Origin: Armatimonadota bacterium | GTDB taxonomy: Bacteria > Armatimonadota > Hebobacteria > CAIYQO01 | NCBI GenBank assembly: GCA_036504255.1 | Contig: DASXVL010000769.1 | Location: 1-36,521, forward strand | DNA: 36,521 nucleotides | Direction of reading: 5' to 3' | In this document: positions 3,006 through 33,396 of the stretch, one piece after another | How the letters are laid out: each line of letters starts with the position of its first letter | Numbering within the stretch: position 1 is the stretch's first letter | The notes under the pieces: generated by a model | What the model saw: the letters and a program-made list of their open reading frames with translations, nothing else | Told to the model about the DNA's origin: nothing | The model's database searches: none | Translations under genes and position numbers: made by a program

Positions 3006-6000
3006 TATTTGCCCCCCTTCAACTGATCGATCTTGCGCAGGGCCGCCACGACGGCGCTGGAATCCGGGTAGCTGTCGATGACCTTTTGGTAGGCCGCGAG
3101 CGCCTCGGGCAGATGAGCGGCTTGCTCGTGGCAGCGCGCCACTTTATACTGCCAGACCGGGCAGAGCGCGTGCGTCGGCTGGCTGGCGAGGAGTTGCGCA
3201 TACCAGGTACCCGCCTGCTGGTAGCCGCTCGCGGTCCCGAGTTGGAAGGCGGAGTCCGCGAGCCAGGCGAGTGTCTCCGGCGACGGCTGGCGTTGGCCGA
3301 TCTTGGTGAGTATGGCTTCGACGTCTTTCGTCCGCCCGGCGCTCTGGTACATGGTCACCAGCGACGCCAACACGGTCGGAATGCGCGCGTCAGATGGATA
3401 GGTCGCGATGAGGTCGAGCCACGCGTGCTCGGCCTGGGCCTCCAGCGCCGTGCCATTCTCGCCCCGCACGCGCGCCGTCAAGGCCAGCCGTTGCGCCCAC
3501 TGCGCCTGCAGGTACAGCAGCGTCGAGCGCGAGAGCTGATCCACCGGCAATTGCGTCACGAAGCGGGCGTAGGCCGGATACCAGTCCGCGGCGACGGTGG
3601 CGTTGACCAGGCGATCCCGCACCAGGGGGAGCACGCGATCGGCGGCGAGCAGCGGCGTGGCCGTCCACGACTCTTCACACTGGCGTTTCAAGGTGGCCAC
3701 CTGTTCGGCAGTCAGGTTCGGCGCCAGCAGCATGCGATTGACCGCTCCATAGAAGACGGCAAGATAGGTCCCCTGCTCATTGAGTGCCTGGTCGGGTTGT
3801 CCCATCGCCACCAGGGTCGCGTTGAGGCCGGTGTGCAGGCTGGTCACGGTGTCCTGCTGGCCCGCCAGGGATAACGCCTGATAGATGCGCGGGGCCAGGG
3901 AGAGGGCGAGGGGCACGTCGTTCGGGTTCTTCGCTTGTTGCAGCGTGCGGATCACCGCCATGCCGTCGGTGAGGAATTGGCTCGGCTGTGTTTTTTCGAT
4001 AGCGCCCAACTGGGCGGCGCGATAGGCGGTGTTTTCTGCCTGCAGTTGCTCGGGGGTGGCGACCTTGGCGAGCGCCGTTTGCAGTTGCGCATGCGTCGCC
4101 TGCACGTCCTCCAGGTGGCCGGCGGCTGCCAGCGGGCCATAGGTACGCCGGGCGATATCGAGCAGGAACGGTACTTCCGCTACGGTGAGTTGGCGTCCGC
4201 CAACGGTGAGCAGCGCCAGCGTCTCGCTTTGGAACTGGGCGGGCAGGGTCTTCTCCAGCGCGGCCAGGCGCGCAGTGTAGTACTGGATCTTCTCCGCTAC
4301 TTGCTGGTCCGGGGTCCCGAATTTGGCCACCCAGGCGGCGAGTTGCTCGTGCGCCGTCTTCGCCTCGGCCCCGCGCCCGGCGATGTAGAGCGGCCCGTAC
4401 GCCCGTCGCCCGAGGTCGAGGAGAAACAGGAGATCACCGGGGGTGACCGGGCGGGCGGGGGCGAACTGCGCCAACGCCTCGGTGAGGAAGGCGGGCACAT
4501 CGGTGCGCTCCAGGCTCCCCAGACGGACGGTCAGATAGGCCAGTCCCTCCACCCGGGCCGGTTCCGCTTGATTCATGGTCGTCAGTGCGCTTCGCAGGCC
4601 CGCATGCAGCGTGTCCGCCGCCGCGCCCTGCCCGCTCGCATAGAGCGCGAGATAGACGCGTGGCGCCAGGCCGGCAGCAAGTTGGGCCTCCGGCCAGCTC
4701 TGCGCCGTTTTCGCGGCCGCGAGCACGCCTTGCGCTTCGGTGAGGAACTGCGCGGGGGCCGTGCGTTCCAGGTTCCCCAAGCGGGCGGTCAGGTAGGCTT
4801 GGGCTTCCAGGCGTGCCTGCTCCGGTTGATTCATGGTCGTCAATGCACTTTGCAGGCCCGCATGCGCCGCCTCGGCGTCCGCGCCCTGCCCTGCCGCAAA
4901 GAGCGCCGGGTACACGCGCGGGGCCAGACTCACCGCCACCTGCGCCTCAGACCACACGCGCGCCGTCTTGGCGGTCGTCATGATCTGCGTGGCCTCGCGC
5001 AAAAATTGGGCGGGCTGGCTCTTTTCCAGGTTGGCCAGGGAGACCGTCTGATACTGGATGTCGTCCGCTTGCGCCGCCTCGGGCAGCTTAGCCTGCAGCA
5101 AGGCGGTCTTCAGCTTTTCGTGCAATGCTTTCGCGTCCGCCGGACGGCCAGTACTGAGCAGCGGACTATACATGCGCCGTGCCAGGTCTTGCAAGCCGGG
5201 GGCCTCGGCCGCCGTCACCGGGTGGTCGAGCGTCACCAGGGTGTGCGCTTCCGTGAGGAATTGCGTGGGATCGCTCTTTTCCAGGGCGGCCAGGCGCAGG
5301 GGCTGGTAGACCTGATCGTCTTTTTGTGCGAGGTCGGAGAGATTGGCGGCGCGCAAGGCGGTGCTGAGGGCCTCGTGGACGCGCTGCGCCTCGGCCAGTT
5401 TGCCGGCGGTGATGAGCGCGGGATAGAGGCGCGGCGTCACGCTGGCGCCAAACTGCAGCTCAATGAGCGGCGAAGCGCCGGTCAAGGCGCTGACCAGGGC
5501 GCTCGCCTGGGTAAGGAACAGCGCCGGTTGCAGCTTCTCCAGGGCGTTGAGCTGGGCGGCACGGTACAGAAACGCTTCTGCCTGTACCTGGTCGGCGGTG
5601 GCCATTTTGGCGAGCGCCGCTTGCAACTGTTCGTGCACCGGCTTCAGCTCATCGGCACGGCCGGCGACCGTGAGCGGGCCATAGGTGCGCCGGGCGAGAT
5701 CGAGCAGGAACGGCACTTCGCTGAGCATGAGCTGACGTCCGCCGACCGTCAAGTGCGCCAAGGCCTCGGTTTGAAACAGGGGAGGCTGTGTCTTTTCCAG
5801 ATAGGCCAGACGCGCGCCGAGATACAGCGTCTTCTCCAGCAACTGCTGGTCCGCGGTCCCGAGTTTGCCCATCCAGGCGGCGAGTTGCTCATGCGCGGTC
5901 TTCGCCTCGGCCCCGCGCCCGGCGGTGTAGAGCGGCCCATAGCTGCGGCGCGCGAGGTCGACCAGAAAGGGCAGATCGCCGGTGGTCACCGCCCGCGTGG

Positions 6001-9000
6001 CAGTGAACTGCGCAAGTGCCTCGGTGAGGAAGGTGGCCGGATCGGTGCGTTCCAAACTGCCCAGGCGGGCGGTCAGGTAGGCCAGCGCTTCCAGGCGCGC
6101 CTGTTCCGGTTGCGACATGGCCTTGAGGGCGGCTTGCAGGCCCGCGTGCACGGTGTCGACGTCCCCGCCCTGCCCGGCGGCGTAGAGCGCCGGGTACACC
6201 CGTGGGGCCAGGCCGGCGGCCACTTGCGCCTCGGGCCAGGCCTGGGCGGTCTTGGCCGCAGCCAACACCACTTTCGCCTCGCTCAAGAATTGGGTCGATT
6301 GGGTTTTCTCCAGCGTCGCCAGATACGCCGTCTGATACTGCACCTCGTCCGCTTGCACCGTCTCGGGCAGGTTCGCCTGCTGCAAGGCGGTCTTCAGGCG
6401 CGCATGCAGCGCTTTCGCATCAGCCAGACGTCCGGCGTTCAACAGCGGCGTATAACTCCGCCGCGCCAGATCTTGCAGCACGAGCGCCTCAGTCGCCGTC
6501 ACGGGATGGTCGAGCGTCAGTTGGGCTTGCGCTTCCGTAAGGAATTGCGCGGGATCACTCTTCTCCAGCGTGGCCAGGCGCAGTGGCTGGTAGCGCAGCT
6601 CTTCCTGCTGCGCCAGGTCCGGGAGGTTTGCCGCGCGCAGGGCAACAAGCAGCCCGTCATGCAGCCGCTGCGCCTCGGCCAGTTGCCCGGCCGCCACCAG
6701 CGTCGGATAGAGGCGCGGGGTCAGGCTGGCCGCCACGCGCAGGTCGGCGGCGGGCGAGGTCGCGGTGACCCCGGCGACGAGCGCGCGCCCTGCGGCGGCG
6801 AATTGGGCGGGCTGGGTCTTTTCCAACAGCGCCAGGGCGAGGGTCTGATACTGAAACTCGTCGGCTTGCACGGCGTCAGGCAGCTTTGCCTGCAATAAAG
6901 CCGTCTTGAGCCGCTCGTGCACGGCCTTGGCGTCCGCTTGCCGTCCCGCCGCGAAGAGCGGCACATACATGCGTCGTGCGAGATCCTGCAGGCCGATCAA
7001 TTCCGTGGCGGTCTGCGGCTTATCGAAGGTCATCAGCGTCTGTGCGACCGTCACAAATTGCGCAGGATCGCTCTTTTCCAGCACGGACAAACGCAGCGTC
7101 TGATAGCTCTGCTCATCTTTCTGCGCGAGGTCCGGGAGATTGGCGGCGCGCAAGGCGGTGATGAGGGCCTCGTGGACGCGCTGCGCTTCGGCCAGTTTGC
7201 CGGCGGTGATGAGCGGGGGGTAGAGGCGCGGGGTGAGACCGGCGCCCACTTGCAGATCGACGACCGCTGACGCGCCGGTCAAGGCGCTGACAAAGGCGCT
7301 CGCCTGTGTGAGAAACTGTACGGGTTGCTGCTTTTCCAGCACCGCAAAACGGGCGTTGATGAACTGCGCCTGCTCCCCTTGCCGCTGCTCGAGCGTCCCC
7401 CATTTCGCCAATAGCGGCTGCAGGGCGACATGAAGGCGCGTGGCGTCGTCCGCGCGGTTGACGCTATACAGCGGTCCATAGACGCGGCGCGCCAGATCGA
7501 GCACAAACGGCAATTCTCCCGGGGCCACCGTGCGCGTCTCCAACGCCAGTTGCGGGAGGGCTTCCGTCACAAAGCGCGTCGGATCGACCCGTTCCCAATA
7601 GGCCAGCCGTGCGGTGAGATAGCCTTGTGCTTCCACGCGGGACTGATCCGGCTGATTCAAGGTTTTCAATGTCGCTTGCAGGCCGTCATGTAACGCCAGG
7701 GCGTCGTCCAACTGCCCATTTTGACAAAGGGCGAGGTAGACGCGGGGCGCTAGCGCCAGCGCTTGCTGGAGCTCGGTCGGCGTCTTCGCCGTTTTTGCGG
7801 CGACCAGCACGGCGCGTCCTTGCGTCAGGAAGAGCTGCGGTTGTGGTTTTTCCAGGGCATTGACTTGCGCCAATTGATAATTCAGGGTATCGGCTTGCTG
7901 CTGCTCGGGCGTGCCGCTTTTCGCGAGCAGCGCCTGCAGTTGCTCATGCACGGCGGTGATCTCGCTCCCCCGTCCGAGCGTGACGAGCGGCCCATAGACC
8001 CGCCGCGCCAGATCCGTGAGGAAGGCCGCCTCGTTGGGCACGCCGGGGCGCACGCCGCCGGTCAAGAACGGCAGCGCCTCGGTGAGGAATTGCGGAAGAC
8101 TGGTGCGTTCGCAATAGCCCAAGCGGGCCGTCAAGTAGCCCAGTTGCTCGACTTTGGCCTGTTCAGCTTGTCCGACGGTGGGCAGCAGGCGCTGCAGCGC
8201 CTCGTGTCCGCGTTGCGCGTCCTCCAGGGAGCCGGCGGCGCACAACGCCAGGTAGATGCGCGGCGCGAGCGTCGTGGTCAGTTGCAGCTCGGGCCAGGTT
8301 TTGGCGTCGGGCACGGCGGCGAGCAGAGCGCGTCCGGCCGTGACACACTGTTGCGGCTGCAGCTTTTCCCAACCCCCGAAGACGGCGACACGGTAGGTGA
8401 ACGTTTCGCCCGCTTGCCAATTATTCGGGTTCTGAAAGGTTCCGCACGTCGTCTGAAAGCTCTCGTGCAGCGTCTTCGCCGCCTCGAACTGGCCGTTTAG
8501 CGTCAACCGGATATACGCGCGTGCCAGGAAGTCATAGGCGAGCTGCAATTCGGGCACGGTGCGCGCCGCGGCGAGCGACGCCGTCACTTCGCGCACCATG
8601 GTGTCGGGCTGGGTGCTTTCCAAATAGGGCAGGCGCGCGCGGGCGTAGACATTCGTCTCCGTCCACGCCCAGTTATTCGGATTATTCAGTCGCGCGTAGG
8701 CCTGTTGCAGCGCCTCGTGCGCCTGCGTCGCGTCAGTCGCACGCCCCAGCGTGAAGAGGCGCGGGTACACGCGCGCCGTAATCTCGGTCGGCACGCGGAG
8801 GTCTTCCAGGTTGGTGGTCGTGCTCGTCGCACGAATGAGTTGCAGCGCCTCCGTCAGGAAGAGCTCCGGCTGCGTGGCCTCCAGTGTCGTCAGCCGCCCA
8901 CGCAGATAGGCGGCGGTATCGGTGACCGGCCAATCGGTGATGCTCAACTCGGCACAGCGTTTCAGCACGGTCTCATGCGCGCGCTGCGCCTCCCCTCCCC

Positions 9001-9853
9001 GCCCGAGTTGCAGCAAGGGGACGTAGACTTTGGCGGCCAGTTGCACCGGCAGTTGCAGGTCGGGACGGGTGGCGGCGCTGGCCAGGCGCTCGACCACCGG
9101 GAGCGCTTCACTGAGAAACCGTGTGGTGTTGACACGCTCCAGCCCGGTCAGGTAGACGCCCAGATCGGTGTCTTGCAAGCCGTTGGGATTATGCTGCTGC
9201 GCAATGAGGGCTTGCACACGAGTCGAGATGGCCTTGGCCTCGTCATACTTGCCCGCGGTGAGCAACACGGGGTAGAGCCGGCCCGCGACGGTGATGCGCC
9301 AGCGCAGGTCATCGAGCGGCACGGGGGTACCGGTGGCGGTGATAATGGCTGTCGCCTCGCTGATAAACTTGGCGGGGTCGCTCTTCTCATAATAATTCAA
9401 GCGCAGCAGTTGCACGCGCGGCGTCGAGTTCGGCGGCAGCAGGTCACGTGTGGTCACCGCGTCGAGCATGGCGAACGCTTTGTCCGGCATGGTGGGGGCA
9501 GTCAGCACAAAATAGGCCTCCGCCGCCTGCCAGAGGGTATCGGATTTCGGCCAGCGTTGACAGATGAGCGTCCACAGCGGTTCCCCGTCCGTCCGCCGCC
9601 CCAGCGCCAGATAACATTTAAAGAGCAGTACGGTGGCTTCCGGCTGGTATTTACTGGCAGGAAACTGTTGGCGGAAGGTCTCCAACACCGGCACGGCATC
9701 GCCATACAGTTGTTGTTGCACGGCGACGCGGGCGCGGCCGATGAGCATTTCATCCGGCGAGGGTTGCGCGCACACGGGGAGCGTGGTCCAGCAGAGAAGC
9801 AGGCACAGGCCCCACAAGCAGAATGTACGGAGAGACAGCGCACACGGCGTCAT
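3005..9853 (-). CDS. Giant secreted helical-repeat (TPR-like) protein, about 2282 aa
   Basis: ORF track 3005..10180. The first 109 codons of that ORF run through the repeated non-coding element and are rejected. ATG at 9853 has AAAGGA about 7 nt upstream and gives signal peptide MTPCALSLRTFCLWGLCLLLCWTTLPVCA. The N- and C-terminal regions look like ordinary TPRs. The centre is about 22 tandem 85-86-aa modules. Confidence 0.85.
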   Translation of the reverse strand: MTPCALSLRTFCLWGLCLLLCWTTLPVCAQPSPDEMLIGRARVAVQQQLYGDAVPVLETFRQQFPASKYQPEATVLLFKCYLALGRRTDGEPLWTLICQRWPKSDTLWQAAEAYFVLTAPTMPDKAFAMLDAVTTRDLLPPNSTPRVQLLRLNYYEKSDPAKFISEATAIITATGTPVPLDDLRWRITVAGRLYPVLLTAGKYDEAKAISTRVQALIAQQHNPNGLQDTDLGVYLTGLERVNTTRFLSEALPVVERLASAATRPDLQLPVQLAAKVYVPLLQLGRGGEAQRAHETVLKRCAELSITDWPVTDTAAYLRGRLTTLEATQPELFLTEALQLIRATSTTTNLEDLRVPTEITARVYPRLFTLGRATDATQAHEALQQAYARLNNPNNWAWTETNVYARARLPYLESTQPDTMVREVTASLAAARTVPELQLAYDFLARAYIRLTLNGQFEAAKTLHESFQTTCGTFQNPNNWQAGETFTYRVAVFGGWEKLQPQQCVTAGRALLAAVPDAKTWPELQLTTTLAPRIYLALCAAGSLEDAQRGHEALQRLLPTVGQAEQAKVEQLGYLTARLGYCERTSLPQFLTEALPFLTGGVRPGVPNEAAFLTDLARRVYGPLVTLGRGSEITAVHEQLQALLAKSGTPEQQQADTLNYQLAQVNALEKPQPQLFLTQGRAVLVAAKTAKTPTELQQALALAPRVYLALCQNGQLDDALALHDGLQATLKTLNQPDQSRVEAQGYLTARLAYWERVDPTRFVTEALPQLALETRTVAPGELPFVLDLARRVYGPLYSVNRADDATRLHVALQPLLAKWGTLEQRQGEQAQFINARFAVLEKQQPVQFLTQASAFVSALTGASAVVDLQVGAGLTPRLYPPLITAGKLAEAQRVHEALITALRAANLPDLAQKDEQSYQTLRLSVLEKSDPAQFVTVAQTLMTFDKPQTATELIGLQDLARRMYVPLFAAGRQADAKAVHERLKTALLQAKLPDAVQADEFQYQTLALALLEKTQPAQFAAAGRALVAGVTATSPAADLRVAASLTPRLYPTLVAAGQLAEAQRLHDGLLVALRAANLPDLAQQEELRYQPLRLATLEKSDPAQFLTEAQAQLTLDHPVTATEALVLQDLARRSYTPLLNAGRLADAKALHARLKTALQQANLPETVQADEVQYQTAYLATLEKTQSTQFLSEAKVVLAAAKTAQAWPEAQVAAGLAPRVYPALYAAGQGGDVDTVHAGLQAALKAMSQPEQARLEALAYLTARLGSLERTDPATFLTEALAQFTATRAVTTGDLPFLVDLARRSYGPLYTAGRGAEAKTAHEQLAAWMGKLGTADQQLLEKTLYLGARLAYLEKTQPPLFQTEALAHLTVGGRQLMLSEVPFLLDLARRTYGPLTVAGRADELKPVHEQLQAALAKMATADQVQAEAFLYRAAQLNALEKLQPALFLTQASALVSALTGASPLIELQFGASVTPRLYPALITAGKLAEAQRVHEALSTALRAANLSDLAQKDDQVYQPLRLAALEKSDPTQFLTEAHTLVTLDHPVTAAEAPGLQDLARRMYSPLLSTGRPADAKALHEKLKTALLQAKLPEAAQADDIQYQTVSLANLEKSQPAQFLREATQIMTTAKTARVWSEAQVAVSLAPRVYPALFAAGQGADAEAAHAGLQSALTTMNQPEQARLEAQAYLTARLGNLERTAPAQFLTEAQGVLAAAKTAQSWPEAQLAAGLAPRVYLALYASGQGAAADTLHAGLRSALTTMNQAEPARVEGLAYLTVRLGSLERTDVPAFLTEALAQFAPARPVTPGDLLFLLDLGRRAYGPLYIAGRGAEAKTAHEQLAAWVAKFGTPDQQVAEKIQYYTARLAALEKTLPAQFQSETLALLTVGGRQLTVAEVPFLLDIARRTYGPLAAAGHLEDVQATHAQLQTALAKVATPEQLQAENTAYRAAQLGAIEKTQPSQFLTDGMAVIRTLQQAKNPNDVPLALSLAPRIYQALSLAGQQDTVTSLHTGLNATLVAMGQPDQALNEQGTYLAVFYGAVNRMLLAPNLTAEQVATLKRQCEESWTATPLLAADRVLPLVRDRLVNATVAADWYPAYARFVTQLPVDQLSRSTLLYLQAQWAQRLALTARVRGENGTALEAQAEHAWLDLIATYPSDARIPTVLASLVTMYQSAGRTKDVEAILTKIGQRQPSPETLAWLADSAFQLGTASGYQQAGTWYAQLLASQPTHALCPVWQYKVARCHEQAAHLPEALAAYQKVIDSYPDSSAVVAALRKIDQLKGGK
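3734..9364 (-). repeat. Coding tandem array of about 22 modules of 85-86 aa (about 256 nt period)
   Basis: Recurrent pattern F-LTEA...LQ..LA(P/R)R.Y..L..AG....A...H..L...L.......Q...E...Y...RL..LEK..P..F. Thirteen modules (about 3974-7312) fall into five subtypes arranged a-b-a-b-c-d-e / a-b-c-c-d-e. The DNA is visibly near-identical between 5349-5560 and 7145-7350. Confidence 0.8.
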
Positions 9854-9892
9854 GATGATTCCTTTCCACGGGCATCGGTCAGGTCGGTTTAC

Positions 9893-10263
9893 AGTCATGG
9901 ACCTCCGGCAGAGCCGGAGGCTTGATGTTGTGTATCGCGCAAAGCGGTGTACTGTTACTTGGCGATGCGCCTCGTCAGTGATCCCATCCAGGCTAGTGTT
10001 TCCGGCCGGGGATAGCCGGGCTATGGCCCTGTTCCAGACAGTGCTAAGGACTTTAAGTTGGGCTGGTGTCAACAGCACTGTCTGGAACAGGGCCCAAGCC
10101 CGGCTATCCCCGTGTGCTTTGATAGGGCAACCACGCACGAAGGCATTCCGCTGCTTTCCGTGTGTGAACGATGACAGCACACGCAGAGCGCCGCATGATC
10201 AGTCCCGGAACTGTCACACGCTGGGAGTATCCCCGGCAGAGCCGGGGGTTTACCCTGGATTAA
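9893..10263 (+). ncRNA. Candidate structured RNA / dispersed repeat, copy A (371 nt, unrecognised family)
   Basis: Aligns by hand to 29016-29302 with unrelated flanks. Hairpins:
- 9902-9920, CCTCCGG-CAGAG-CCGGAGG.
- 9930-9952, with loop GCAAA.
- 10008-10111, a long helix.
- 10159-10183.
- 10203-10226.
- 10231-10247, CCCCGG-CAGAG-CCGGGG.
Several G-U pairs exist only if the plus strand is the RNA. Confidence 0.45.
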
Positions 10264-10272
10264 TAATAATAG

Positions 10273-21666: not shown

Positions 21667-22044
21667 ATGGTAGAAGCTTACGCGGAGTATGCCGCGTCCA
21701 AACACGTTCTGCTCGTCGAAGACAATACAGATCTGCGCGAGTTCTTGGTGATGCTGCTGGGGGACGCGGGATATGCCGTCACGGATGTGGAAGATGGCCA
21801 TGCCGCACTCCCCCTCATCGCCACGGGGAAATACGAGATTTTCCTGGTCGACTTACAGCTCCCGGATGTGAAGGGAAGCGACCTCATCGAAAAAGCACGG
21901 CGCTACGGCGTATCGTTTCGGGCGATCCTCATGAGCGCCAACCCGGAAATCGAACGCTTCGCTACCGCCTGCCACGCCGAAGGATTCTTCTTCAAGGGCG
22001 AGCCGATCCAACAGTTGTTGGCCGCCCTCCAACCAGTCGCCTGA
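21667..22044 (+). CDS. Stand-alone response-regulator receiver domain (CheY-like, 125 aa)
   Basis: ORF track. Receiver residues are present: LLVEDN, phospho-acceptor context IFLVDLQLPD, ILMSA and FFFKGEP. There is no output domain. Confidence 0.85.
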   Translation: MVEAYAEYAASKHVLLVEDNTDLREFLVMLLGDAGYAVTDVEDGHAALPLIATGKYEIFLVDLQLPDVKGSDLIEKARRYGVSFRAILMSANPEIERFATACHAEGFFFKGEPIQQLLAALQPVA

Positions 22045-22096: not shown

Positions 22097-22150
22097 AGAC
22101 ACCATCATGGCCTATCAGGTGCTTTCACCTGATAGGCCATGATGGTGTCT
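22097..22150. terminator. Perfect 25-bp hairpin between convergent genes (bidirectional terminator or palindromic site)
   Basis: AGACACCATCATGGCCTATCAGGTG (22097-22121), loop CTTT, then the exact reverse complement (22126-22150). No U-tract on either side. It lies between the receiver stop (22044) and the GH127-like stop (22177). Confidence 0.45.
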
Positions 22151-22176: not shown

Positions 22177-24468
22177 TTAGGTATGTACGACAGCGCACGG
22201 GCGCATGCTGCGCAGCGGATTTTCCGGGGTAAATGCCGTTTCCTGCACGCCGCGGATATTGAACCAGGTGCGGTAGGGATTCCCCGTCATGCCCGCGCTG
22301 GCGAAGTCGCAGAGGTAGAGCGGTTCGCCCTGCGCGTCACGACATTCCAGTAACAGCCAGGGGGCGTAGTTGAGCTCCGGCGTGCAGACGCGCACCGGGA
22401 GCTGTCCGGCATCCAGGCCGGGCAGGTGCTCGCTATCCATGGTGTTATAGCGATGGTCGAACGCGAGCAGCAGCGGACCACGGTAGATGGAGGAAATGCG
22501 GTAATCATGTCCTTCCACACCAGCGGACGGGACTGCGTCCGCGCGGCCGATGGTCAGCGTCCAATGGGGATGCCCGGCGGGATACTCGGTGATCGCGAAG
22601 ACGATGACATTGGTACCGGGGCGCAGTGGCAACGCCACCCGTTCACGGCGCAATGACAGGTCGCCATCGAACCCGCAGGAATCTCCATCATAGACGATTT
22701 CACCGTTGACGCTCACGCGCGTGCGGTAGTCGGCGCTGAAATGGATGGGCAGCACGGCGTCGCACGCGCTCTCCACCTCGGTCACGCAGTAGACCAGCCG
22801 CGCGTCTGCTGCCGGACGCGGCAACTGACGAAACTCCAGTTCGCCCTTGACGCTCCGCAGGGTCACGCCGCCTTCATGCGGGCAGGCCGTGTCGGTGGGC
22901 AGGGGGCCGAAGACCTGCCAGTCGGTCTCCCAGTCCGCATAGGTATACCCCGTGCCGTGCGCCCAGTAGTGCAAGCGAAAATCGAAGGTCAACTCGAGGG
23001 CATCGCCCGCGTGCCAGCAGCGCGTCACGCGCAGGTAGCTCCCAGCGGTCACCCCCTCCAGCCGTTCGCCGTTGAGCGTCACCGTGGTCTGCTCCGACCA
23101 ATTGGGGATGCGTAAGGCGAGCGTGAACTCTTCTGCAACATCCGGGGTCACCTGTAACGTCACGCGCGGGTCCAACGGATAGGTGGTGTGCTGGGTTAAG
23201 GTACACGTGTTCCCCGACGGCAAGGCAAACGTCAGGCTGCCCGGCCCATAATAATTGAGGTAGACCGCCTCCTCGCCCCGCATCAGCGCCCATTCTCCGA
23301 GCATACCGAGCATACGCGGACCGTTGACGGAACAGCAGTTGAGCTCCGGCGAGGCGGGGCGTGACTGGAAGACGATGGAGTGTGCGCTGGCGACCCGCCG
23401 CCCCTCCATGGGGGTATCATAGGTGACCCAACGCCCGGAGGGCGATATCATGCCAAGGCCGGAGTTGAACAGCGTGAACTCCAACTCATCAGCCACCACC
23501 GACTGCCCGGTCATGCGCAGCATGTCCACTGACATGGCGGTCCACGCCACGGTGCAACAGGTTTCGATGGCTCCCCAATCATAGGGGTTGCCGGTGGCGC
23601 GTTCACCCGAGGAAAACCCGCCGTTATTGTGGCGATCCCCTTCCAGCATGCTCCACCAGAGTTGAGAAAAGGCACGGCGATAGTCCTCATCCCTGCTAAG
23701 GAAGTAGCGCTCGGCAATCCCCTCGATAGCGTGCAGGCTTTCCCAACGCGGCTTTGGGGTCTCGTGAAATTTCAATCCCCGCAAGGGCGCGCGCACATAA
23801 TCACCGGCAGGGGGCACGGCGAAATCGCGCTCGATCTCTTCGGCTAACTCCCAGTAGCGTTGTTCGCCGGTGCGGTGGTAGAGCAGCAGCAACGCATGGT
23901 ACGGCGCCATGTTCATTTCCTGCTCGTTCAACTCATGCACGCGGCGTCCGGTATGCAGGAAGGCGGCGCATAGCATATCGGCGATGCGCCGCGCGCAGGC
24001 CAGGGCTTCCGTCTCGCCCGTCAGGTCATGCCACTCCAGCAGGCCGAGCATGGCATGGTAGTGCCCCCAGGTGTCCCAGGTGATCCCGCCGTTCGGCGTC
24101 GGGCCTGCCAACCCCAGCCGATAGGCTTTCGGCCAGGGGCCCAGGTAACCATCATCGTCCTGCAGCGCAATCAGCTCCTCCACAAACCGGCGCAGGTGCG
24201 GCTCAAGGCGTGGGTCGCGGGTGACGCGGTAGATCTGCACGGCATGCGTCAGGTATTTTCCCGCAAACTCGCCGGCCCAGGGCACCTGTTGCCGCCAGGG
24301 CAGGCGATCGCGTTCGCGGAACATCTCCAGCATGGCGGGATTGGCTTCCGGCGCGGGCAGCACCCATTGCTCAATAACCGCGGCCAGCCGGCGACCGACT
24401 TCGCCCCCCAGTTCACCGCCAAGCCACGCGACCGGTTCGACGGCCGGCTGTACGACATAACGTTCCAT
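22177..24468 (-). CDS. Glycoside hydrolase family 127-like (DUF1680, beta-L-arabinofuranosidase family) with C-terminal extension
   Basis: ORF track. ATG preceded by AGGAGA. No signal peptide. E-T-C (IETCCTVAW) and N-C-C (ELNCCSVNG) match the Glu/Cys zinc and catalytic motifs of the HypBA1 family as I recall them. Confidence 0.7.
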   Translation of the reverse strand: MERYVVQPAVEPVAWLGGELGGEVGRRLAAVIEQWVLPAPEANPAMLEMFRERDRLPWRQQVPWAGEFAGKYLTHAVQIYRVTRDPRLEPHLRRFVEELIALQDDDGYLGPWPKAYRLGLAGPTPNGGITWDTWGHYHAMLGLLEWHDLTGETEALACARRIADMLCAAFLHTGRRVHELNEQEMNMAPYHALLLLYHRTGEQRYWELAEEIERDFAVPPAGDYVRAPLRGLKFHETPKPRWESLHAIEGIAERYFLSRDEDYRRAFSQLWWSMLEGDRHNNGGFSSGERATGNPYDWGAIETCCTVAWTAMSVDMLRMTGQSVVADELEFTLFNSGLGMISPSGRWVTYDTPMEGRRVASAHSIVFQSRPASPELNCCSVNGPRMLGMLGEWALMRGEEAVYLNYYGPGSLTFALPSGNTCTLTQHTTYPLDPRVTLQVTPDVAEEFTLALRIPNWSEQTTVTLNGERLEGVTAGSYLRVTRCWHAGDALELTFDFRLHYWAHGTGYTYADWETDWQVFGPLPTDTACPHEGGVTLRSVKGELEFRQLPRPAADARLVYCVTEVESACDAVLPIHFSADYRTRVSVNGEIVYDGDSCGFDGDLSLRRERVALPLRPGTNVIVFAITEYPAGHPHWTLTIGRADAVPSAGVEGHDYRISSIYRGPLLLAFDHRYNTMDSEHLPGLDAGQLPVRVCTPELNYAPWLLLECRDAQGEPLYLCDFASAGMTGNPYRTWFNIRGVQETAFTPENPLRSMRPCAVVHT

Positions 24469-25595: not shown

Positions 25596-25784
25596 CTTTC
25601 CCTCGAAAGGCGATGCCCTCCTCTGTACCATCAAACCAACATGCAGTTATTGTGCTAATCTCTGCGAGTATCGTCATAGTCTACTCCACTACCGCACGCT
25701 ATGCTAATACACATATTAGCCGCCTTACGTCCTGCGACTATTACACGTATCGCGGCTCACTCTACCCGTGCGAGGAATGTACTA

Positions 25785-28700
25785 ATGACACTGACTTGCC
25801 TGCAGCACTTCGCCACCCCCGGCGCCGCGTATCGCGGTAAGCCCTTCTGGGCCTGGAATGGGGCTCTGGATCCGGAGGAACTCCGACGCCAGATTCGGCT
25901 GATGCACCAGATGGGGCTCGGTGGTTTCTTCATGCATGCGCGCGTGGGGCTCGACACGGCCTATCTGTCCGAGGATTGGTTCCGCTGCGTCGATGCCTGC
26001 ATCGATGAAGCTGCCACGCTGGGGATGGAAGCCTGGCTCTATGACGAAGATCGCTGGCCTTCCGGCGCCGCCGGTGGCCTGGTGACGAAGAATCCGGACT
26101 ACCGGGCGCGAAAATTAATCGTACATATCCTCACCGATCCGCAGGAGCTATCCTGGGATGATACGCTCGCGGCATTCAGCGCAGTCGTCGATGGCGCAGT
26201 CGCGCGTGATGTGGCCCCACTGGCCCGCGACGCCCGTCCCGTGCTGCGGCCCGACCAGGTCATCCTGCGCTTTGCCGTGCAGACCGAAGATACGAGCCCC
26301 TGGTACAATGGTCAGACCTATCTGGACACGCTGAGCCATGACGCCGTACGCGAATTCCTCCGCGTCACCCACGAGGCATATGCCGAGCACTGCGGCGAGC
26401 ATTTTGGCGGCATGGTGCCGGGTATTTTCACCGACGAGCCAAGCTACGGTGACATGCTCCCGACGGAGGATACCTTATCCCTGCCCTGGACTGCCAGCCT
26501 GTTAACAGCCTTTGCTACGCGCTACGGGTATGATCTGCTGCCGCATCTGGTGGAACTCTATTTCGATATCGCGGGTCAACCGGTCTCCCAGGCGCGCTAT
26601 CACTATCACGATTGCGTGACCTATCTCTTCGTCGATGCCTTTGCCCGGCAAATTGGCGAGTGGTGCGCGGAACATCAGCTCCTCTTTACCGGGCATGTGC
26701 TGGAGGAAGATACGCTGCGCAATCAGGTGAACAGGGTTGGCAGTTGCATGCGCTTCTACGAGCATATGCAAGCGCCGGGTATGGATCTGCTGACCGAGCA
26801 TTGGCGCGTATTCGGTACCGCCAAGCAGGTATCATCAGCCGCGCGGCAATTCGGGCGGGACTGGCGTCTCTCCGAAACGTACGGCTGTACCGGCTGGGAC
26901 TTCCCCTTTGCCGGGCATAAAGCGCTCGGCGACTGGCAGGTGGCGCTGGGGATCAATTTGCGCTGCCAACATCTGGCCTGGTATACCATGCAGGGCGAGG
27001 CGAAGCGCGATTATCCGGCGAGCATCTCCTATCAATCCCCCTGGTGGGATACTTACCACACCGTCGAAGACTATTTCGCGCGCATTCTGGCGGTGATGAC
27101 GCGCGGCGTCGAGGTGCGCGACCTGCTGGTCATTCACCCGGTGGAGAGTATGTGGCTGCAATGCAAACGCGGCTGGAAGGTTGACGCGGAGGTCACCCGG
27201 CAAGATCAGCAGTTCCTCACCCTCACCGAAGCGCTGCTGGCCGGACACATCGACTTCGATTACGGTGATGAGGAGTTGCTCTCCCGCCATGCCAATGTTC
27301 GCCTGGTGAACGGCATACCTGAGTGTGTCGTTGGCGAGGCGGTCTATCATGCGATGCTCGTGCCTCCGCTCACCACCATCCGCGCCAGTACGCTGTCGTT
27401 GTTAGCCCAGTTCCGCGAGTTGGGAGGGACGGTGGTTTTTCTCGAAGAACCACCACAGTATGTCGATGCCCAGCCCTCTGCTGCGGCGATCACGCTGGCG
27501 GCGCAATGCCGACAGGGGCTTCCGGTGCACGGCCCGGCGCTGCTCGATGCCGTGGCGCCGACCTGTCGCCGTCTCTCGATTACCGATGCACACGGCGAGG
27601 AACTCGCGCCGGTGCTCTACCTCCTCCGCGAAGACGCCGATGCCTGCTACCTGTTCATCTGCAACACCGGGGAAGATTTCGTACGTGACGGACGCGGACT
27701 GATGGATGACCCGCTGGTCCGCGAGCGCACCCTCGCCTTCCCCGAGGTGATCATTCGTGGCTTCGCGCCGTGCGCGGGCACGCCGTTGCAACTGGACCCG
27801 GAGACCGGCGCGACCAACAGCGCCGATGCGCTGCGCACAGACGCGGGCTGGGAGATTCGCACCAGCTTGCCTGCGCTGGGCAGCCGCCTCTTTGTGCTCC
27901 CGAAAACCGCAATGGCCGATGCGGCCGTCGCACCGTTGCCCACGCGCGTCCCAGCGCAAATTACCACGCTGGAGGAGGCGACAAGACCGATCCAACTGTC
28001 CGAGCCTAATGTATTGGTCCTCGATTATCCGCAGTATCGTCTCGCCGATGGCGACTGGCAGGAGGCCACGGAGATCCTGCAGGTTGACCAAGCGGTCCGC
28101 CGGGCACTGGGCATCGCGCCGCGTGGCGGGGCGATGGTGCAACCCTGGGCGCGCGAGTACCCGGCCTGTCCACAACGCATTGCCGTTGCGCTGCGCTACG
28201 AATTTGACGTGGCCGAATTGCCCGGTGGCGAACTCTTCCTCGCGTGCGAAACGCCGGAGACATTACAGATTACCCTGAACGGCGTTGCGTTGGTGGTCGA
28301 TGTGGCCAGCGGATGGTGGACGGACCGCTCGCTGCGAAAAATCCCCGTGCACCCGGCGCTGCTGCGCCGTGGCCACAACGTGCTCACCGTCACCTGTGAC
28401 TACGCGGAAACGCATTCCGGCCTGGAAATCATCTACCTGCTCGGCGACTTTGGCGTCACGCTGCACGAGCGCCAGGCGACCCTGACAGCGCTCCCCACTC
28501 ACCTCGCGCTCGGCGATTGGTGCATGCAAGGCCTGCCGTTTTACGCCGGCTCCGTGCTCTACGCACAGGAGGTCGAACTCCCGCCGCTTGCTGCCGGCGC
28601 GCGTATCGCCGTGCAGGTACCTGACTATCGTGGCGTCGGTGTGCGTGTCTGGGTAGCTGGGCACCCCGCCGGTACTATCGGCTGGGAGCCGAACGAAGTG

Positions 28701-28925
28701 GACGTGACGGACCTCGTCATGGGCAACGCCCATGCCCTGCTCCAAATCGAAGTACTGGGTCACCGTCGCAACTCCCACGGACCGCTCCATCTCAAGGAGA
28801 AATGGCCGACCTGGACCGGTCCCGGCCAATTCCTACCCTCACAGGATGAGTACTACCCGGGCTACCAGCTCGTGCCCTGTGGATTGATGGCGCAGGTGCA
28901 ACTGGTGACCTACCTCCCCGGTTAG
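25785..28925 (+). CDS. Large cytoplasmic glycoside-hydrolase-like protein (family uncertain, possibly GH106-like)
   Basis: ORF track 25701..28925. ATG at 25785 has GAGGA about 9 nt upstream. The N-terminal motif is GKPFWAWNG...GLGGFFMHARVGL...YLSEDWF...EAWLYDEDRWPSGAAGG. I associate it with jelly-roll/TIM glycosidases. The family assignment rests on recall only. Confidence 0.7.
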   Translation: MTLTCLQHFATPGAAYRGKPFWAWNGALDPEELRRQIRLMHQMGLGGFFMHARVGLDTAYLSEDWFRCVDACIDEAATLGMEAWLYDEDRWPSGAAGGLVTKNPDYRARKLIVHILTDPQELSWDDTLAAFSAVVDGAVARDVAPLARDARPVLRPDQVILRFAVQTEDTSPWYNGQTYLDTLSHDAVREFLRVTHEAYAEHCGEHFGGMVPGIFTDEPSYGDMLPTEDTLSLPWTASLLTAFATRYGYDLLPHLVELYFDIAGQPVSQARYHYHDCVTYLFVDAFARQIGEWCAEHQLLFTGHVLEEDTLRNQVNRVGSCMRFYEHMQAPGMDLLTEHWRVFGTAKQVSSAARQFGRDWRLSETYGCTGWDFPFAGHKALGDWQVALGINLRCQHLAWYTMQGEAKRDYPASISYQSPWWDTYHTVEDYFARILAVMTRGVEVRDLLVIHPVESMWLQCKRGWKVDAEVTRQDQQFLTLTEALLAGHIDFDYGDEELLSRHANVRLVNGIPECVVGEAVYHAMLVPPLTTIRASTLSLLAQFRELGGTVVFLEEPPQYVDAQPSAAAITLAAQCRQGLPVHGPALLDAVAPTCRRLSITDAHGEELAPVLYLLREDADACYLFICNTGEDFVRDGRGLMDDPLVRERTLAFPEVIIRGFAPCAGTPLQLDPETGATNSADALRTDAGWEIRTSLPALGSRLFVLPKTAMADAAVAPLPTRVPAQITTLEEATRPIQLSEPNVLVLDYPQYRLADGDWQEATEILQVDQAVRRALGIAPRGGAMVQPWAREYPACPQRIAVALRYEFDVAELPGGELFLACETPETLQITLNGVALVVDVASGWWTDRSLRKIPVHPALLRRGHNVLTVTCDYAETHSGLEIIYLLGDFGVTLHERQATLTALPTHLALGDWCMQGLPFYAGSVLYAQEVELPPLAAGARIAVQVPDYRGVGVRVWVAGHPAGTIGWEPNEVDVTDLVMGNAHALLQIEVLGHRRNSHGPLHLKEKWPTWTGPGQFLPSQDEYYPGYQLVPCGLMAQVQLVTYLPG

Positions 28926-28968: not shown

Positions 28969-28992
28969 CCCTTCCGCAGGGATGCGGAAGGG
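28969..28992 (+). terminator. GC-rich hairpin downstream of the hydrolase gene
   Basis: CCCTTCCGC-AGGGAT-GCGGAAGGG, 44 nt after the stop at 28925. No U-tract. A second smaller hairpin lies at 28931-28950. Confidence 0.35.
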
Positions 28993-29015
28993 AGCCCCGA
29001 AGAAGAACGGAAAGC

Positions 29016-29302
29016 AATCATCGGCCTCCGGCAGAGCCGGAGGCGTGATGTTGTGTACCGCGCAAAGCGGTGTACTGATCCTTGGCTCTGCGCCTCGTAA
29101 GTAATTCCATCCAGACTGTCCTTTCCGGCCGGGGATAGCCCGGCTATCCCGTTCGCTTTGATAGTGCAACCACGCCCGAGGGCATTCCTCTGCTTTCCGT
29201 GTGTGAACGATGACTGCATACGCAGAGAGCATCATGACCAGTCCCGGAACTGTCACACGCTGGGAATCTCCCCGGCAGAACCGGGGGGTTACCCTGAATT
29301 AA
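29016..29302 (+). ncRNA. Candidate structured RNA / dispersed repeat, copy B (287 nt)
   Basis: Homologous to 9893-10263. Hairpins at 29025-29043, 29053-29075, 29131-29150 (the short version of the variable helix), 29198-29222 and 29270-29286. It sits between convergent genes, so it cannot be a 5-prime leader on either strand. Confidence 0.45.
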
Positions 29303-29357
29303 GTAGCGGAGGAAAAGCCTAGCGTAGTGAAGGAGATGAAGTCTCCACTAGCGACTC

Positions 29358-29389
29358 GGGTGCGGTCTACCCCACTGCAGACCGCACCC
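29358..29389. terminator. 11-bp GC-rich hairpin 84 nt downstream of the GH71 gene stop
   Basis: GGGTGCGGTCT-ACCCCACTGC-AGACCGCACCC. No U-tract. Coordinates may be off by 1-2 nt. Confidence 0.3.
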
Positions 29390-29472: not shown

Positions 29473-32400
29473 TCATCGGTTCATGAGTGACAGCACCTCC
29501 GCGTCGAGCATCACACCGGCGTGGATACTGAACAGGTCGCCTTGCGGTGACCAGGCGCCGTTGGGGTTACTATTGCCGCCAAGTACGTCCAATGCTCGTG
29601 CGGTGGTTGCCGGTGTGCGGTCGGCGAACCATCCCTGATTGCCGGTCTGCGTATCGCAGATATACAGTCCATCGCGATAGAACTTGGTGGTTGTCACGAG
29701 GGACTGCGAACCGGCCGGTACCACCATGGTGTAGAAATGCCACTCATTGGGGATGAGGTAGCCGGTGGTCGGGCTTAGGTTCTGCACCGTGCCGTCGGAC
29801 GAGGCGGCGTAGACGGTGACGCACGTGGGGTCGTTGTACGTCGTCATGACGTTCACCACGGCGTTCGTCAGAATCGCCCGCTGGTAGGTGGGGTTATTGA
29901 TTGTCCCCGGGTTCAGCCAGAAGGAAAGCGTCAGCCCCCCAGCGTCCTTGACCGCCTGGCCGCGCAGATTCGGGTGATCGGGCGCAGTCATTAACACCGA
30001 GGTCGCCCCCGAACCGGTCAGCACATGGTTTCTGGTGTAGCTGTTCCCCCGGACCGTCACCTGGCCAACATTCTGCACCGTCGCCTGTGCGCCCAGCGTG
30101 CCGTTGTATGTTGTCCCGTCCACGCCGGTGTTTCTGCCCAGCGTGTCGTAGTCTTCAAAGGCATACGCCATCGGCGTTCCCGTGACGGGGGCATACGACC
30201 CGAAAAGCGAGGCCACATCTTGATCGTTCATCACGCCGGCGATCAGTCGGAAGGCATCGGCTTTCGGTGACCAGGCCCCATTGCTATTGGTATTGCCGCT
30301 AAAGAGATTGATCGACTGCGACACGTCTTTCGGGAGCCGGTCTGCTGTCCAGCCTAATCCGCCGGTCTGCGTGTTGCAGACGAACACGCCATCACGATAG
30401 AACTTGGTGGTCGACACGGCGGCTTGCGTGCCTTGCGGCACCACGATGGTATAGTAATGCCACTCGTTGGGGACGAGATAGCCGGTGGTGGAATTCAGGT
30501 TTTGTGTCGTGCTATCCGACGCCATCGCGTACACCGTTAACTTGCTCACGTCGTTATAGCACGTGATGATACTCAACGACGAACTCGTCAAGAGATAGCG
30601 CTGGTAAGTGGGATTGCCGATGGCGCCAGGATTCATCCAGAAGGAGACCGTCAGTCCCCCGGCGTCCTTGACCGGTTGGCCGCGCAGGTTTGTATCGTCT
30701 GGGACGCTTAGCAACGCCGAGGTAGCACTCGTGCCTGACACGACATGGACGAGGTCATAGGGATTGCTCCCTACCGTCACCCGGCCGATATTCTGGATGC
30801 TCGCCTGGGCGCCCAGTGTGCCGTCGTACGTCGTGCCATCCACGCCGGTGTTTTTGCCGGCCGTGCCTTGCTCCTCGAAGGTGTATTCCAAGCGAGGATT
30901 ATCCGCCAGGGCGTACAGTTGCCGCTGCGGAATGACCTCTTTCGGTTGTAGCGTACCGGACCAGGAAAGGCGTACCTGCGCATTCGATGTCGGGTTTCCG
31001 TACACCGCCTGCAGCCCATACTTGTACCCTGCCCGCAAGGTAATGGCAGTACTGCTGCTTTCGGTCGGCGTGGAGGTCTGCGACTTATTGATGATCTGCT
31101 GGCCGTCCACCCACAATTGAAAACTCCCGTCACAGCGGACGGTGAACGTGTAGGTGTCATCATACTTGGGCTGTAGTTGCCCGTTCCAATGGACCGCGTA
31201 ATTGGTGGGTGACGAGATATCCGTGCCTGACGGCACGGCGTTCCCCCACGCAAAATCCACGTTGGCGTCAATGCGCCGGGTGACCGGCGTCGCGCCATCG
31301 TAGTAATCGGCGGTGAGCCCGGCGCCGGTACCGATGCTGGCGCCGACGTAGGCGTAGTCCGTCGCATAGGTAAAGTTGTACTTGGTGATCGTGGCGTTGA
31401 TCGGCTCACCCTGCTTTTGCAGGATGCACTGGCCATTGCGCCACAGTTCGAAGCTCTGCGTGCCGGTATTGAACGACACCTGGGTATGTACGATGCCGGC
31501 GGCGACCTGGTAGGTATTGGTCACGCCACCGGTAATAACGTGCAACTCGGCGGCGGATTTCAGCATGGTCGTCACGTAGATGGTATCGGTGACGGTGCCA
31601 ATGAACGATGTAACCGGCCCAGAGGGATCGGAGCAGGTGGCATTCTTGGGGTGCGTGCGGTACGCGTAAACGAGCATTTCCTCATTGATCGGGGGCTGCG
31701 TGCCTGTCTTATACCAATTAATGTAGTAGCGCGTCAGCTCGGAGAGGCCACGGTGGCTCTTGAAGAACCCAGAGGCGTACTGGCTCAAATAGCTGCCGAC
31801 ATCGGCCACCGGGCTGTAGTAGCTGGCTTCGGTCCAATCGTTCCAGGTCGTCATCTCGATCCATTGCGGTTGCTGCGTCTGGATGATCGAATCCCACTGC
31901 GTGCTGACGCCCTGACCGCCGGTGAATTCAAAGTAGCGGCGACCGCCCGGCTGCGTGCAGCCCCAGTATTGCGGCGATGTCGACGACATGTGCACGGCGT
32001 AATTCTCCTTCATCAACCGCGCGTACGCTTCCTGTGCTGCCGACAGGGTGGCCGGCGTACCGGCGGCGCCGAAGAAAAAGAGCCCGTTCGCCACATCCTT
32101 CCACCACAAATCATTGTCGGCTTTGATGCGGTCATACGTGATACTTCCCGCCTCATCGGAGTAGCGGTCATAAAAGAACGGTTCAAACCATACGTTAATG
32201 CCGCTGGACTGCAGCGCGGTGAGCACGTTGTTGCGCCACCAGTCGCGCGCCCCCGTTCCACCGCCGCCTTGCGCCTGCCCGCCGAAGGTGGAGAGCACCG
32301 GACGCCCTTGATAGCTGAGGTAGTTCGGATGGCTGGCATACGTTTGCATCATATTGACGATATCCGGATAGTCCAACCCGGTCGCCATGTCGGCGGAGAA

Positions 32401-33396
32401 GAACAGCTTAAAGTCGGTGCCCAACTCTTCCGCCGCCCGGAACATCTCCGAAGTGCGCGTCTGGTAATACGTAGCGGTGGACCAGGCGCCGCAGTTGAGC
32501 GCAAAACCGTCGATGCCCATCGCCTGCGCATCTTGAATGTCCCGCTTAAAGGCGTTCACGTTGTAGCCATAGACGCCCATGGCCACCATGTAGTGGGCAA
32601 AGACCTTGCGGAATTGTTGCGCATACAACGCCTGCACGTCGGCGTCGGTGATCACCCCGGCATAGATTTGAAACCCGTCGCCTTGGGGCGACCAGGCGCC
32701 GTTGGCGTTGCTATTGCCGCCTAGGATATCGAAAACGCGGGCCGTGTCCCTCGGTATACGCGCGGCGGTCCATCCCAGGTTGCCGGTCTGCGTATTACAG
32801 ATAAACTGTCCATCGCGATAGAACTTGGTGGTCGTCACGAGCGATTGTATGCCATGCGGTATCACGATCGCATAGTGGTGCCATTCATTCGCGATGAGGT
32901 AGCCCGGAATGGGGTTGAGGTTTTGCGTGGTGCCGTCCGACGCTGTCGCATACACCGTGACGCGGCTCACATCATTGTACGTCGTCGCGATGTTCACCGC
33001 CGTGTTCGTCACAATCGCCCGTTGATAGGTGGGATTGCCGATGGCGCCCGGGTTCAGCCAGAACGAGACCGTCATGCCCCCGGCATCCTTGAGCGGCTGC
33101 CCGCGCAGGTTCGCGTCGTCAGGTACAGTCATCAGCACCGAATAGGCGCCCGTACCGGTGAGGATATAACCGGCACTGTACTTATCCGTTCCCGCCGCGA
33201 TGCGCCCGATATTGACGACGCTCGCCTGGGCGCCCAATGCACCGTTGTACGTCGCGCCATCGACGCCGGTGTTCTTGCTCGGCGTGCTGGTGTCCTCGAA
33301 GCCATACGATAATCGCATGACCGCGGCATCCACCCGTACCATCCCACAGAATGTACACAGCATTCCCACAACCATGATGACTCTCAACAGGTTCAT
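29473..33396 (-). CDS. Secreted multidomain alpha-1,3-glucanase: LamG-like, GH71, PA14, LamG-like, LamG-like (1307 aa)
   Basis: ORF track. ATG preceded by AAGGAG 7 nt upstream. Signal peptide MNLLRVIMVVGMLCTFCGMVRVDA.
- GH71 motif (about 31327-32610): VFAHYMV...GIDGFALNCG...FKLFFSADM.
- PA14 (about 30907-31323): LTADYYDG...VDFAWG...YAVHWNGQL...DGSFQLWVDG. Confidence 0.85.
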   Translation of the reverse strand: MNLLRVIMVVGMLCTFCGMVRVDAAVMRLSYGFEDTSTPSKNTGVDGATYNGALGAQASVVNIGRIAAGTDKYSAGYILTGTGAYSVLMTVPDDANLRGQPLKDAGGMTVSFWLNPGAIGNPTYQRAIVTNTAVNIATTYNDVSRVTVYATASDGTTQNLNPIPGYLIANEWHHYAIVIPHGIQSLVTTTKFYRDGQFICNTQTGNLGWTAARIPRDTARVFDILGGNSNANGAWSPQGDGFQIYAGVITDADVQALYAQQFRKVFAHYMVAMGVYGYNVNAFKRDIQDAQAMGIDGFALNCGAWSTATYYQTRTSEMFRAAEELGTDFKLFFSADMATGLDYPDIVNMMQTYASHPNYLSYQGRPVLSTFGGQAQGGGGTGARDWWRNNVLTALQSSGINVWFEPFFYDRYSDEAGSITYDRIKADNDLWWKDVANGLFFFGAAGTPATLSAAQEAYARLMKENYAVHMSSTSPQYWGCTQPGGRRYFEFTGGQGVSTQWDSIIQTQQPQWIEMTTWNDWTEASYYSPVADVGSYLSQYASGFFKSHRGLSELTRYYINWYKTGTQPPINEEMLVYAYRTHPKNATCSDPSGPVTSFIGTVTDTIYVTTMLKSAAELHVITGGVTNTYQVAAGIVHTQVSFNTGTQSFELWRNGQCILQKQGEPINATITKYNFTYATDYAYVGASIGTGAGLTADYYDGATPVTRRIDANVDFAWGNAVPSGTDISSPTNYAVHWNGQLQPKYDDTYTFTVRCDGSFQLWVDGQQIINKSQTSTPTESSSTAITLRAGYKYGLQAVYGNPTSNAQVRLSWSGTLQPKEVIPQRQLYALADNPRLEYTFEEQGTAGKNTGVDGTTYDGTLGAQASIQNIGRVTVGSNPYDLVHVVSGTSATSALLSVPDDTNLRGQPVKDAGGLTVSFWMNPGAIGNPTYQRYLLTSSSLSIITCYNDVSKLTVYAMASDSTTQNLNSTTGYLVPNEWHYYTIVVPQGTQAAVSTTKFYRDGVFVCNTQTGGLGWTADRLPKDVSQSINLFSGNTNSNGAWSPKADAFRLIAGVMNDQDVASLFGSYAPVTGTPMAYAFEDYDTLGRNTGVDGTTYNGTLGAQATVQNVGQVTVRGNSYTRNHVLTGSGATSVLMTAPDHPNLRGQAVKDAGGLTLSFWLNPGTINNPTYQRAILTNAVVNVMTTYNDPTCVTVYAASSDGTVQNLSPTTGYLIPNEWHFYTMVVPAGSQSLVTTTKFYRDGLYICDTQTGNQGWFADRTPATTARALDVLGGNSNPNGAWSPQGDLFSIHAGVMLDAEVLSLMNR
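29476..30171 (-). repeat. LamG-like module copy 3
   Basis: aa 1076-1307. By eye it is the closest to copy 1. Confidence 0.7.
30199..30894 (-). repeat. LamG-like module copy 2
   Basis: aa 835-1066; same conserved blocks as copy 1. Confidence 0.7.
32617..33318 (-). repeat. LamG-like module copy 1 (coding paralogous repeat)
   Basis: aa 27-260. Shares NTGVDG.TYNG.LGAQA...NLRGQ..KDAGG.T.SFW.NPG...NPTYQR...TTKFYRDG...NGAWSP with the other two modules. Confidence 0.7.

Follow-up and report, generated by a model that had tools for sequence, protein, structure and literature searches.

The window analysed here, the 36,521-nt contig DASXVL010000769.1 of an Armatimonadota bacterium, carries two copies of an intergenic repeat. 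Copy B (29016–29301, 286 nt) lies between the stop codons of two convergent genes, a GH106-like hydrolase gene on the plus strand (25701–28925) and a GH71/PA14 gene on the minus strand (29473–33396). Copy A (9893–10262, 370 nt) separates two consecutive minus-strand genes, following the stop codon of one (10273) and preceding the ATG of the other (9853). The termini of both copies were transferred from multi-copy relatives described below. An earlier sequence-only reading of this DNA had recognized the same two gene contexts and had placed copy B at 29016–29302; a repeat indeed exists there, and the end inferred here falls within 1 nt of that interval.

A search of the window for repeats paired 29015–29147 with 9892–10024 (86%) and 29148–29302 with 10109–10263 (89%), repeat families D11 and D13 together covering copy B. 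In a global alignment, 254 of the 285 ungapped positions were identical between the copies (89%), including perfectly conserved blocks of 25–27 nt, and an 84-nt segment was present in copy A only. The similarity had sharp edges on both sides, and the flanking DNA did not align in pairwise comparison, in keeping with the original proposal that the element occurs independently of its gene context. Another assembly of this organism, from a JGI metagenome (L004; 99.86% identity across 18.7 kb), contains copy B unchanged. No third complete copy was found in the available data, which leaves two known copies. GC skew was flat at ~0 across the window, giving no replication-strand signal against which to read the strand bias expected of IS200/IS605 elements.

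Copy B is flanked by GC-rich hairpins at 28969–28992, after the hydrolase stop, and at 29358–29389, after the GH71 stop, which probably terminate transcription of these convergent genes and leave copy B between them. Downstream of copy A on the minus strand lies a gene of ~2,282 codons (3005–9853), which consists of diverged tandem repeats with 258- and 513-nt periodicity (families D1, D3 and D5–D14) and had only a weak Pfam match to TPR_6, under the cut-off of that family. Because the end of copy A is 40 nt upstream of the ATG of the 2,282-codon gene, copy A may, judging from its position, alter transcription of this gene.

Both ends of the repeat match IS200-group elements

In a distant blastn comparison of copy A with plasmids, only the terminal 65 nt matched, and the matched segments, on plasmids of Leptolyngbya, Rhodanobacter and Solidesulfovibrio, are unannotated. 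In plasmid pLBX of Leptolyngbya boryana, the motif of the window left end (CCTCCGGCAGAGCCGRAGGC, then a hairpin whose loop is of the CAAAG type) was located just past the stop of a gene annotated as IS200/IS605 tnpA, and the motif of the window right end (GGAACTGTCAAACTCTGGGAG, a hairpin and TTTACC...ATTA) was located 57 nt upstream of the tnpA start. The two motifs bracketed the gene, which runs on the strand opposite to the window-oriented motifs and encodes a PF01797 Y1_Tnp protein (E = 7e-41). For both window copies, the top strand of the IS is the minus strand of the window; the right end in the window is the LE of the IS together with the tnpA leader, and the left end in the window is the RE. 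The two other plasmids contained shortened and likewise unannotated versions, namely a gene-less mini-element of ~165 nt with both ends in Rhodanobacter denitrificans plasmid NZ_CP088981.1 (L006:3897–4063), and the same LE with a truncated tnpA in Solidesulfovibrio carbinolicus pDCAR1 (L008:~3770–4060), where the N-terminal ~65 codons are followed by a stop.

To survey the family, we scanned the 20-mer of the RE hairpin (CCTCCGGCAGAGCCGRAGGC) against one genome per species. At least 119 loci, representing more than 10 phyla, contained it in identical form and were then oriented like the window; the taxa among the matches listed included Acidobacteriota, Cyanobacteria, Nitrosomonas, Planctomycetota, Verrucomicrobiota, Armatimonadota, Enterobacteria and others. 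In at least 38 of these loci, a TnpA reading frame lay at a constant distance on the other strand. Both ends were found at least 26 times in full-length elements of 610–670 nt and at least 29 times in mini-elements of 160–390 nt that carry no tnpA, so that among the matches listed the gene-less minis (29) were about as frequent as the full-length elements (26). The window copies (286 and 370 nt) belong to the mini size class, copy B being less than half as long as the 610–670-nt elements. The survey matches often lay at contig ends, as is typical of multi-copy repeats.

End profiles for nhmmer were built from other genomes only, with the window sequences left out. The LE and RE profiles found both ends of both copies (E = 2e-11 to 6e-14), with E-values of 1.9e-11 and 3.1e-12 for copy B and of 2.7e-14 and 5.9e-14 for copy A. 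In copy B, the RE profile (REfam) matched at 29018–29075, and the LE profile (LEfam) at 29242–29302 with the E-value of 1.9e-11. The profiles gave no further match in the window or in an 8-kb extension of it.

Structure of the two copies

The features mapped in the two copies are as follows.

29016–29301, minus strand: copy B, a complete tnpA-less IS200-group mini-element (from repeats, end profiles and mapped termini)
29016–29075, minus strand: RE of copy B (tnpA-distal), with the motif seen past the tnpA stop in Leptolyngbya and in the 38 TnpA-carrying loci listed
29016–29024, minus strand: RE terminal segment of copy B, 9 nt
29025–29043, minus strand: RE hairpin of copy B, CCTCCGGCAGAGCCGGAGG
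29053–29075, minus strand: second RE hairpin of copy B, with a GCAAA loop
29132–29150, no strand assigned: short central hairpin of copy B, GGGATAGCC-CGG-GCTATCCC
29236–29301, minus strand: LE of copy B (tnpA-proximal), including the conserved block GGAACTGTCACACGCTGGGA (blastn to plasmid IS200-group LEs)
29270–29286, minus strand: LE hairpin of copy B, CCCCGGCAGAACCGGGG
At the LE terminus of copy B, minus strand: LE terminal segment of ~14 nt, ending in ...GAATTA
29302–29305, minus strand: candidate target tetranucleotide TACT of copy B, 5′ of the LE (homology to the Klebsiella and L027/L104 boundaries)
9893–10262, minus strand: copy A, the same mini-element plus a long central palindrome (nhmmer matches at both ends)
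9893–9952, minus strand: RE of copy A, with the terminal 9 nt, the RE hairpin (9902–9920) and the second hairpin (9930–9952)
10007–10112, no strand assigned: central palindrome of copy A, 39-nt arms that are 95% complementary and a 28-nt loop (inverted repeat I1)
10196–10262, minus strand: LE of copy A, with the conserved block, the LE hairpin (10231–10247) and the terminal ...GGATTA
10263–10266, minus strand: candidate target TTAT of copy A (homology-based)

The LE and RE hairpins both contain CCGGCTCTGCCGG with the same loop orientation on the minus strand. Over 52 family sequences, the LE hairpin was 97.5% paired, and in 7 of them one G-C pair was replaced by A-T through changes in both arms. 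The LE leader contains a candidate second stem (ACTCCC...GGGAGT), but this was only 67% paired across the family and is not claimed here. Differences between copies A and B had earlier been placed mostly in predicted loops and joining regions, which held weakly, as the ends were 90–91% identical and the interior was 82–87% identical, a difference that was not significant by a rough two-proportion estimate (p ~ 0.14).

The central hairpin of copy B is the stem base of the long palindrome in copy A. About 84 nt of that palindrome are missing in copy B, with AGCC repeats at the junction, and the short hairpin is most simply explained by a deletion within the palindrome that copy A has retained.

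Termini, target sites and gene content

The termini were defined by three Klebsiella copies with differing flanks and by a near-identical pair of mini-elements from different genomes (L027/L104). In these relatives the element ends 9 nt outside the RE hairpin and 13–14 nt outside the LE hairpin, with TAAT preceding the element. Transferred to the window, the termini coincided with the limits of similarity between copies A and B and gave TTAT (copy A) and TACT (copy B) as candidate target tetranucleotides on the top strand, compared to TAAT in Klebsiella and L027/L104. Another register of the LE would place TAAT before both window copies; with only two copies to compare, the LE boundary given here may be off by a few nucleotides.

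Each of the six reading frames contained a stop in at least one copy and none was open in both, and the concatenated six-frame translations of both copies had no homolog among 5.8 billion proteins. The sequence-only reading had named extended flank homology and a protein-coding origin as evidence that would count against it; homology stopped at the edges of the copies, and no frame was shared. A tblastn search with TnpA detected no TnpA remnant inside either copy, and neither the window nor the adjoining 8 kb (L003–L005; ~45 kb in total) yielded a tnpA gene. The nearest orthologs of the hydrolase that flanks copy B were 65% identical, and their contigs (L128–L131) showed no convergent GH71 neighbour, no downstream synteny and no ends of this family, so that none of them provided an empty site for comparison.

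Relation to autonomous and non-autonomous IS elements

Taken together, these results indicate, with a probability of roughly 0.9, that copies A and B are non-autonomous, transposase-less derivatives of the IS200 group (IS200/IS605 family) that resemble PATEs. Each copy would keep the LE of the IS, with its subterminal hairpin and the 5′ leader region of tnpA known from full-length copies, and the RE, with its subterminal hairpin and the second hairpin. The earlier argument against a cis-regulatory leader stands as well. One tnpA-less architecture is common to both copies, whose flanks are unrelated and whose similarity stops at the IS termini; hence tnpA was deleted a single time, and it was the mini-element that later spread to a second site. 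With 89% identity, or 11% divergence, the copies are not recent and may by now be immobile fossils.

In the paradigm of IS608 and ISDra2, a dimer of the Y1 (HUH) TnpA carries out single-strand “peel-and-paste” transposition. By analogy, a TnpA encoded elsewhere in the genome and acting in trans would bind both hairpins on the single-stranded top strand (the minus strand of the window), the element would be excised as a single-stranded circle, and the circle would insert 3′ of a short, T-W-M-T-like target tetranucleotide without duplication of the target.

Autonomous counterparts of the window copies include, for example, the pLBX copy (L007:3440–4060; tnpA WP_017291682.1) and the copies of Klebsiella sp. 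WOUb02 (L056, L066 and L113). These autonomous IS200-group elements share with the window copies the LE and RE motifs, the hairpin sequences, the loop orientation and the terminal spacings, and the 20-mer of the RE hairpin is identical. In contrast, the autonomous elements are 610–670 nt long and carry tnpA, whereas the window copies measure 286–370 nt and have no detectable tnpA remnant. Identity with the classical enterobacterial IS200 of E. coli and Salmonella was rejected, as only partial tnpA matches were obtained, on five E. coli plasmids.

Four traits define PATEs, namely the lack of terminal inverted repeats, palindromes near both termini, the lack of target duplication and a length too short for a transposase (Dyall-Smith et al. 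2011, PMC3119063). The same study relates PATE palindromes to the palindromes of IS605-type transposons and describes a wider gap between terminus and palindrome at the 5′ end, which is preceded by a targeting sequence of 4–5 bp. The window copies are alike in each of the four defining traits. Terminal inverted repeats were absent, the first 25 nt matching the reverse complement of the last 25 nt at 4/25 positions in copy A and 6/25 in copy B, and the best 20-nt ungapped match reaching 9–10/20. Palindromes were present near both termini on the same strand, and the spacing was longer at the 5′ terminus (LE hairpin, 13–14 nt) than at the 3′ terminus (RE hairpin, 9 nt), as in PATEs. No direct repeat of 2 nt or more, as expected from a target-site duplication, was detected at the junctions of either copy, and both copies are too short for a transposase. 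The ends of PATEs and of the window copies are moreover homologous to those of transposase-carrying members. Protein-less, PATE-like mini-elements of Geobacillus share their ends with TnpA-mobilised elements, according to one preprint (Meers et al., bioRxiv 10.1101/2023.03.14.532601), and a similar ends-only element was reported in Halanaerobium (PMC7290912).

Several differences set the window copies apart from the PATEs described so far. The latter are mostly derivatives of the IS605/IS1341 type, which carries tnpB, and may contain an omega-RNA, whereas the window copies derive from a tnpA-only element of the IS200 group. In addition, the interior of the window copies appears lineage-specific and includes a central palindrome, and their mobility is putative. 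MITEs are likewise short, non-coding and non-autonomous IS derivatives that need a transposase in trans, but they have terminal inverted repeats and usually target-site duplications, and the window copies have neither. Thus, the window copies are another example of a kind of bacterial mobile repeat that is common and already described.

The interior and the central palindrome

Between the ends, ~150–235 nt of non-coding sequence replace tnpA. This interior (copy A positions ~75–313) had no match in any of the at least 119 survey loci. Blocks of the interior or the leader were used for exact scans. The 19-mer CGGAACTGTCACACGCTGG gave 0 matches in genome representatives, a collection without the source genome, and a 19-mer gave 0 matches in viral contigs; the 18-mer CCGTGTGTGAACGATGAC gave 2 chance matches in an exact scan of metagenomes, also without the source genome. 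Because these exact-block scans found nothing useful, the interior appears to be lineage-specific sequence.

Compared to shuffled sequences, the interior of copy A folded with z = −8 and that of copy B with z = −0.1. For mini-elements of the family in unrelated phyla, 12/22 interiors among the matches listed had z < −3. Long central palindromes thus recur, often in the longer mini-elements, and might conceivably have been selected for a role in single-strand transposition. Two family loci of MAG JOPF166 (L020 and L084) share their ends, and their central palindromes differ.

SMR-A repeats, which insert into PATEs in Haloquadratum, offer a parallel for the palindrome module. The palindrome could correspondingly be a small repeat that targets or rides PATEs, or a hairpin recruited to serve as an intergenic terminator or insulator. 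That the interior, and notably the central palindrome module, is functional or independently mobile cargo and not inert filler nevertheless appears unlikely.

A segment related to the palindrome was located ~8 kb past the right end of the window, between a GH71 gene and a DUF5696 gene (L003:3538–3630). It is 92% identical to the left arm and loop of the copy A palindrome, includes the stem base TTTCC.GCCGGGGATAGCC that is also common to copy B, and lies without an IS200 end; further nested palindromes follow it, up to ~3745. The segment could be a decayed third copy, or the palindrome could be a separable repeat.

Alternative explanations

We considered whether the copies are PATEs with a functional RNA cargo, either an omega-RNA serving a TnpB or IscB in trans or an sRNA from the tnpA leader. 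An sRNA derived from the tnpA leader has been reported for Salmonella IS200, and the LE of the window copies keeps the former tnpA leader region; the conservation of the interior between copies A and B at 82–87% would also suit a cargo. PATEs often encode omega-RNAs, according to the preprint on the Geobacillus elements (Meers et al., bioRxiv 10.1101/2023.03.14.532601). However, the full-length relatives listed measure only 610–670 nt and encode tnpA alone, and therefore the parent IS had neither tnpB nor an omega-RNA. No TnpB-like gene was present among the called genes of the window and its extension, and the interior of copy B has no homology and no special fold. An RNA cargo of either type is thus improbable.

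The sequence-only reading had left two possibilities, a mobile or repeat element and a stand-alone RNA gene family. The first is borne out by the IS200 ends, which elsewhere bracket a Y1 tnpA gene. The second would make the element a structured non-coding RNA gene with its own promoter, acting in trans. Whole copy B did fold somewhat better than shuffled sequences (z = −3.2 on the plus strand and −2.5 on the minus strand), the second RE hairpin of both copies (29053–29075 and 9930–9952) contains G-T wobbles that pair on the plus strand only, and the perfectly conserved blocks of 25–27 nt might be expected of an RNA gene. However, the excess of folding in the whole element stems from the terminal hairpins, because the interior of copy B showed z = −0.1, and the conserved parts are those that flank tnpA in other genomes, while the interior is unconserved in other genomes among the survey matches listed. 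No match to Rfam 15 was obtained at the gathering score across the whole window, and permissive scans of both copies gave sub-threshold matches only, mostly to microRNA-precursor models and driven by the hairpins. Promoter and terminator scans detected no σ70-like promoter for the element upstream on either strand. A stand-alone RNA gene is therefore highly improbable.

Remnants of a segmental duplication, or two full-length IS insertions that each lost tnpA in place, might also yield two known copies with 11% divergence, but both scenarios carry a negligible probability. The flanks cannot be aligned beyond the IS termini, which excludes a larger duplicated segment, and independent deletions are very unlikely because the tnpA-less interior and its junctions are the same in the two copies.

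An equally negligible chance applies to a REP/BIME/REPIN-type repeat mobilised by the domesticated transposase RAYT (TnpA-REP), which like the window copies would be an intergenic, GC-rich palindromic sequence depending on a Y1 HUH enzyme that acts on single-stranded DNA, RAYTs being related to IS200 TnpA (PMC8266576), but REPINs consist of two inverted REPs whereas the terminal hairpins in the window are direct, REP units measure 20–40 nt compared to 286–370 nt here, and both ends can be aligned to the LE and RE, tnpA leader included, of IS200-group elements that carry tnpA.

Implications for annotation

With a gene-less derivative of an IS200-group element as the preferred reading, a candidate novel structured RNA is explained as an IS200-type mobile repeat present in two copies. 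The IS200 lineage with the almost invariant 20-nt hairpin spans more than 10 phyla, and its gene-less mini-elements are largely unannotated, sequenced plasmids included. The end profiles could be used for masking or annotating such elements, preventing their miscalling as RNA genes.

Other repeats in the window

Repeats of other kinds were found near copy B and between another pair of convergent genes. The GH71/PA14 gene contains three-copy internal repeats (29493–33311, minus strand; ~700 nt per unit, 65–77% identity, families D2, D4 and D8), and the JGI assembly of the same organism breaks inside these repeats, near window positions 30909–30914. A perfect 25-bp inverted repeat with a 4-nt loop (I2, 22097–22150) lies between a response-regulator gene (21667–22044, plus strand) and a GH127 gene (22177–24468, minus strand), where it probably serves as a bidirectional terminator.
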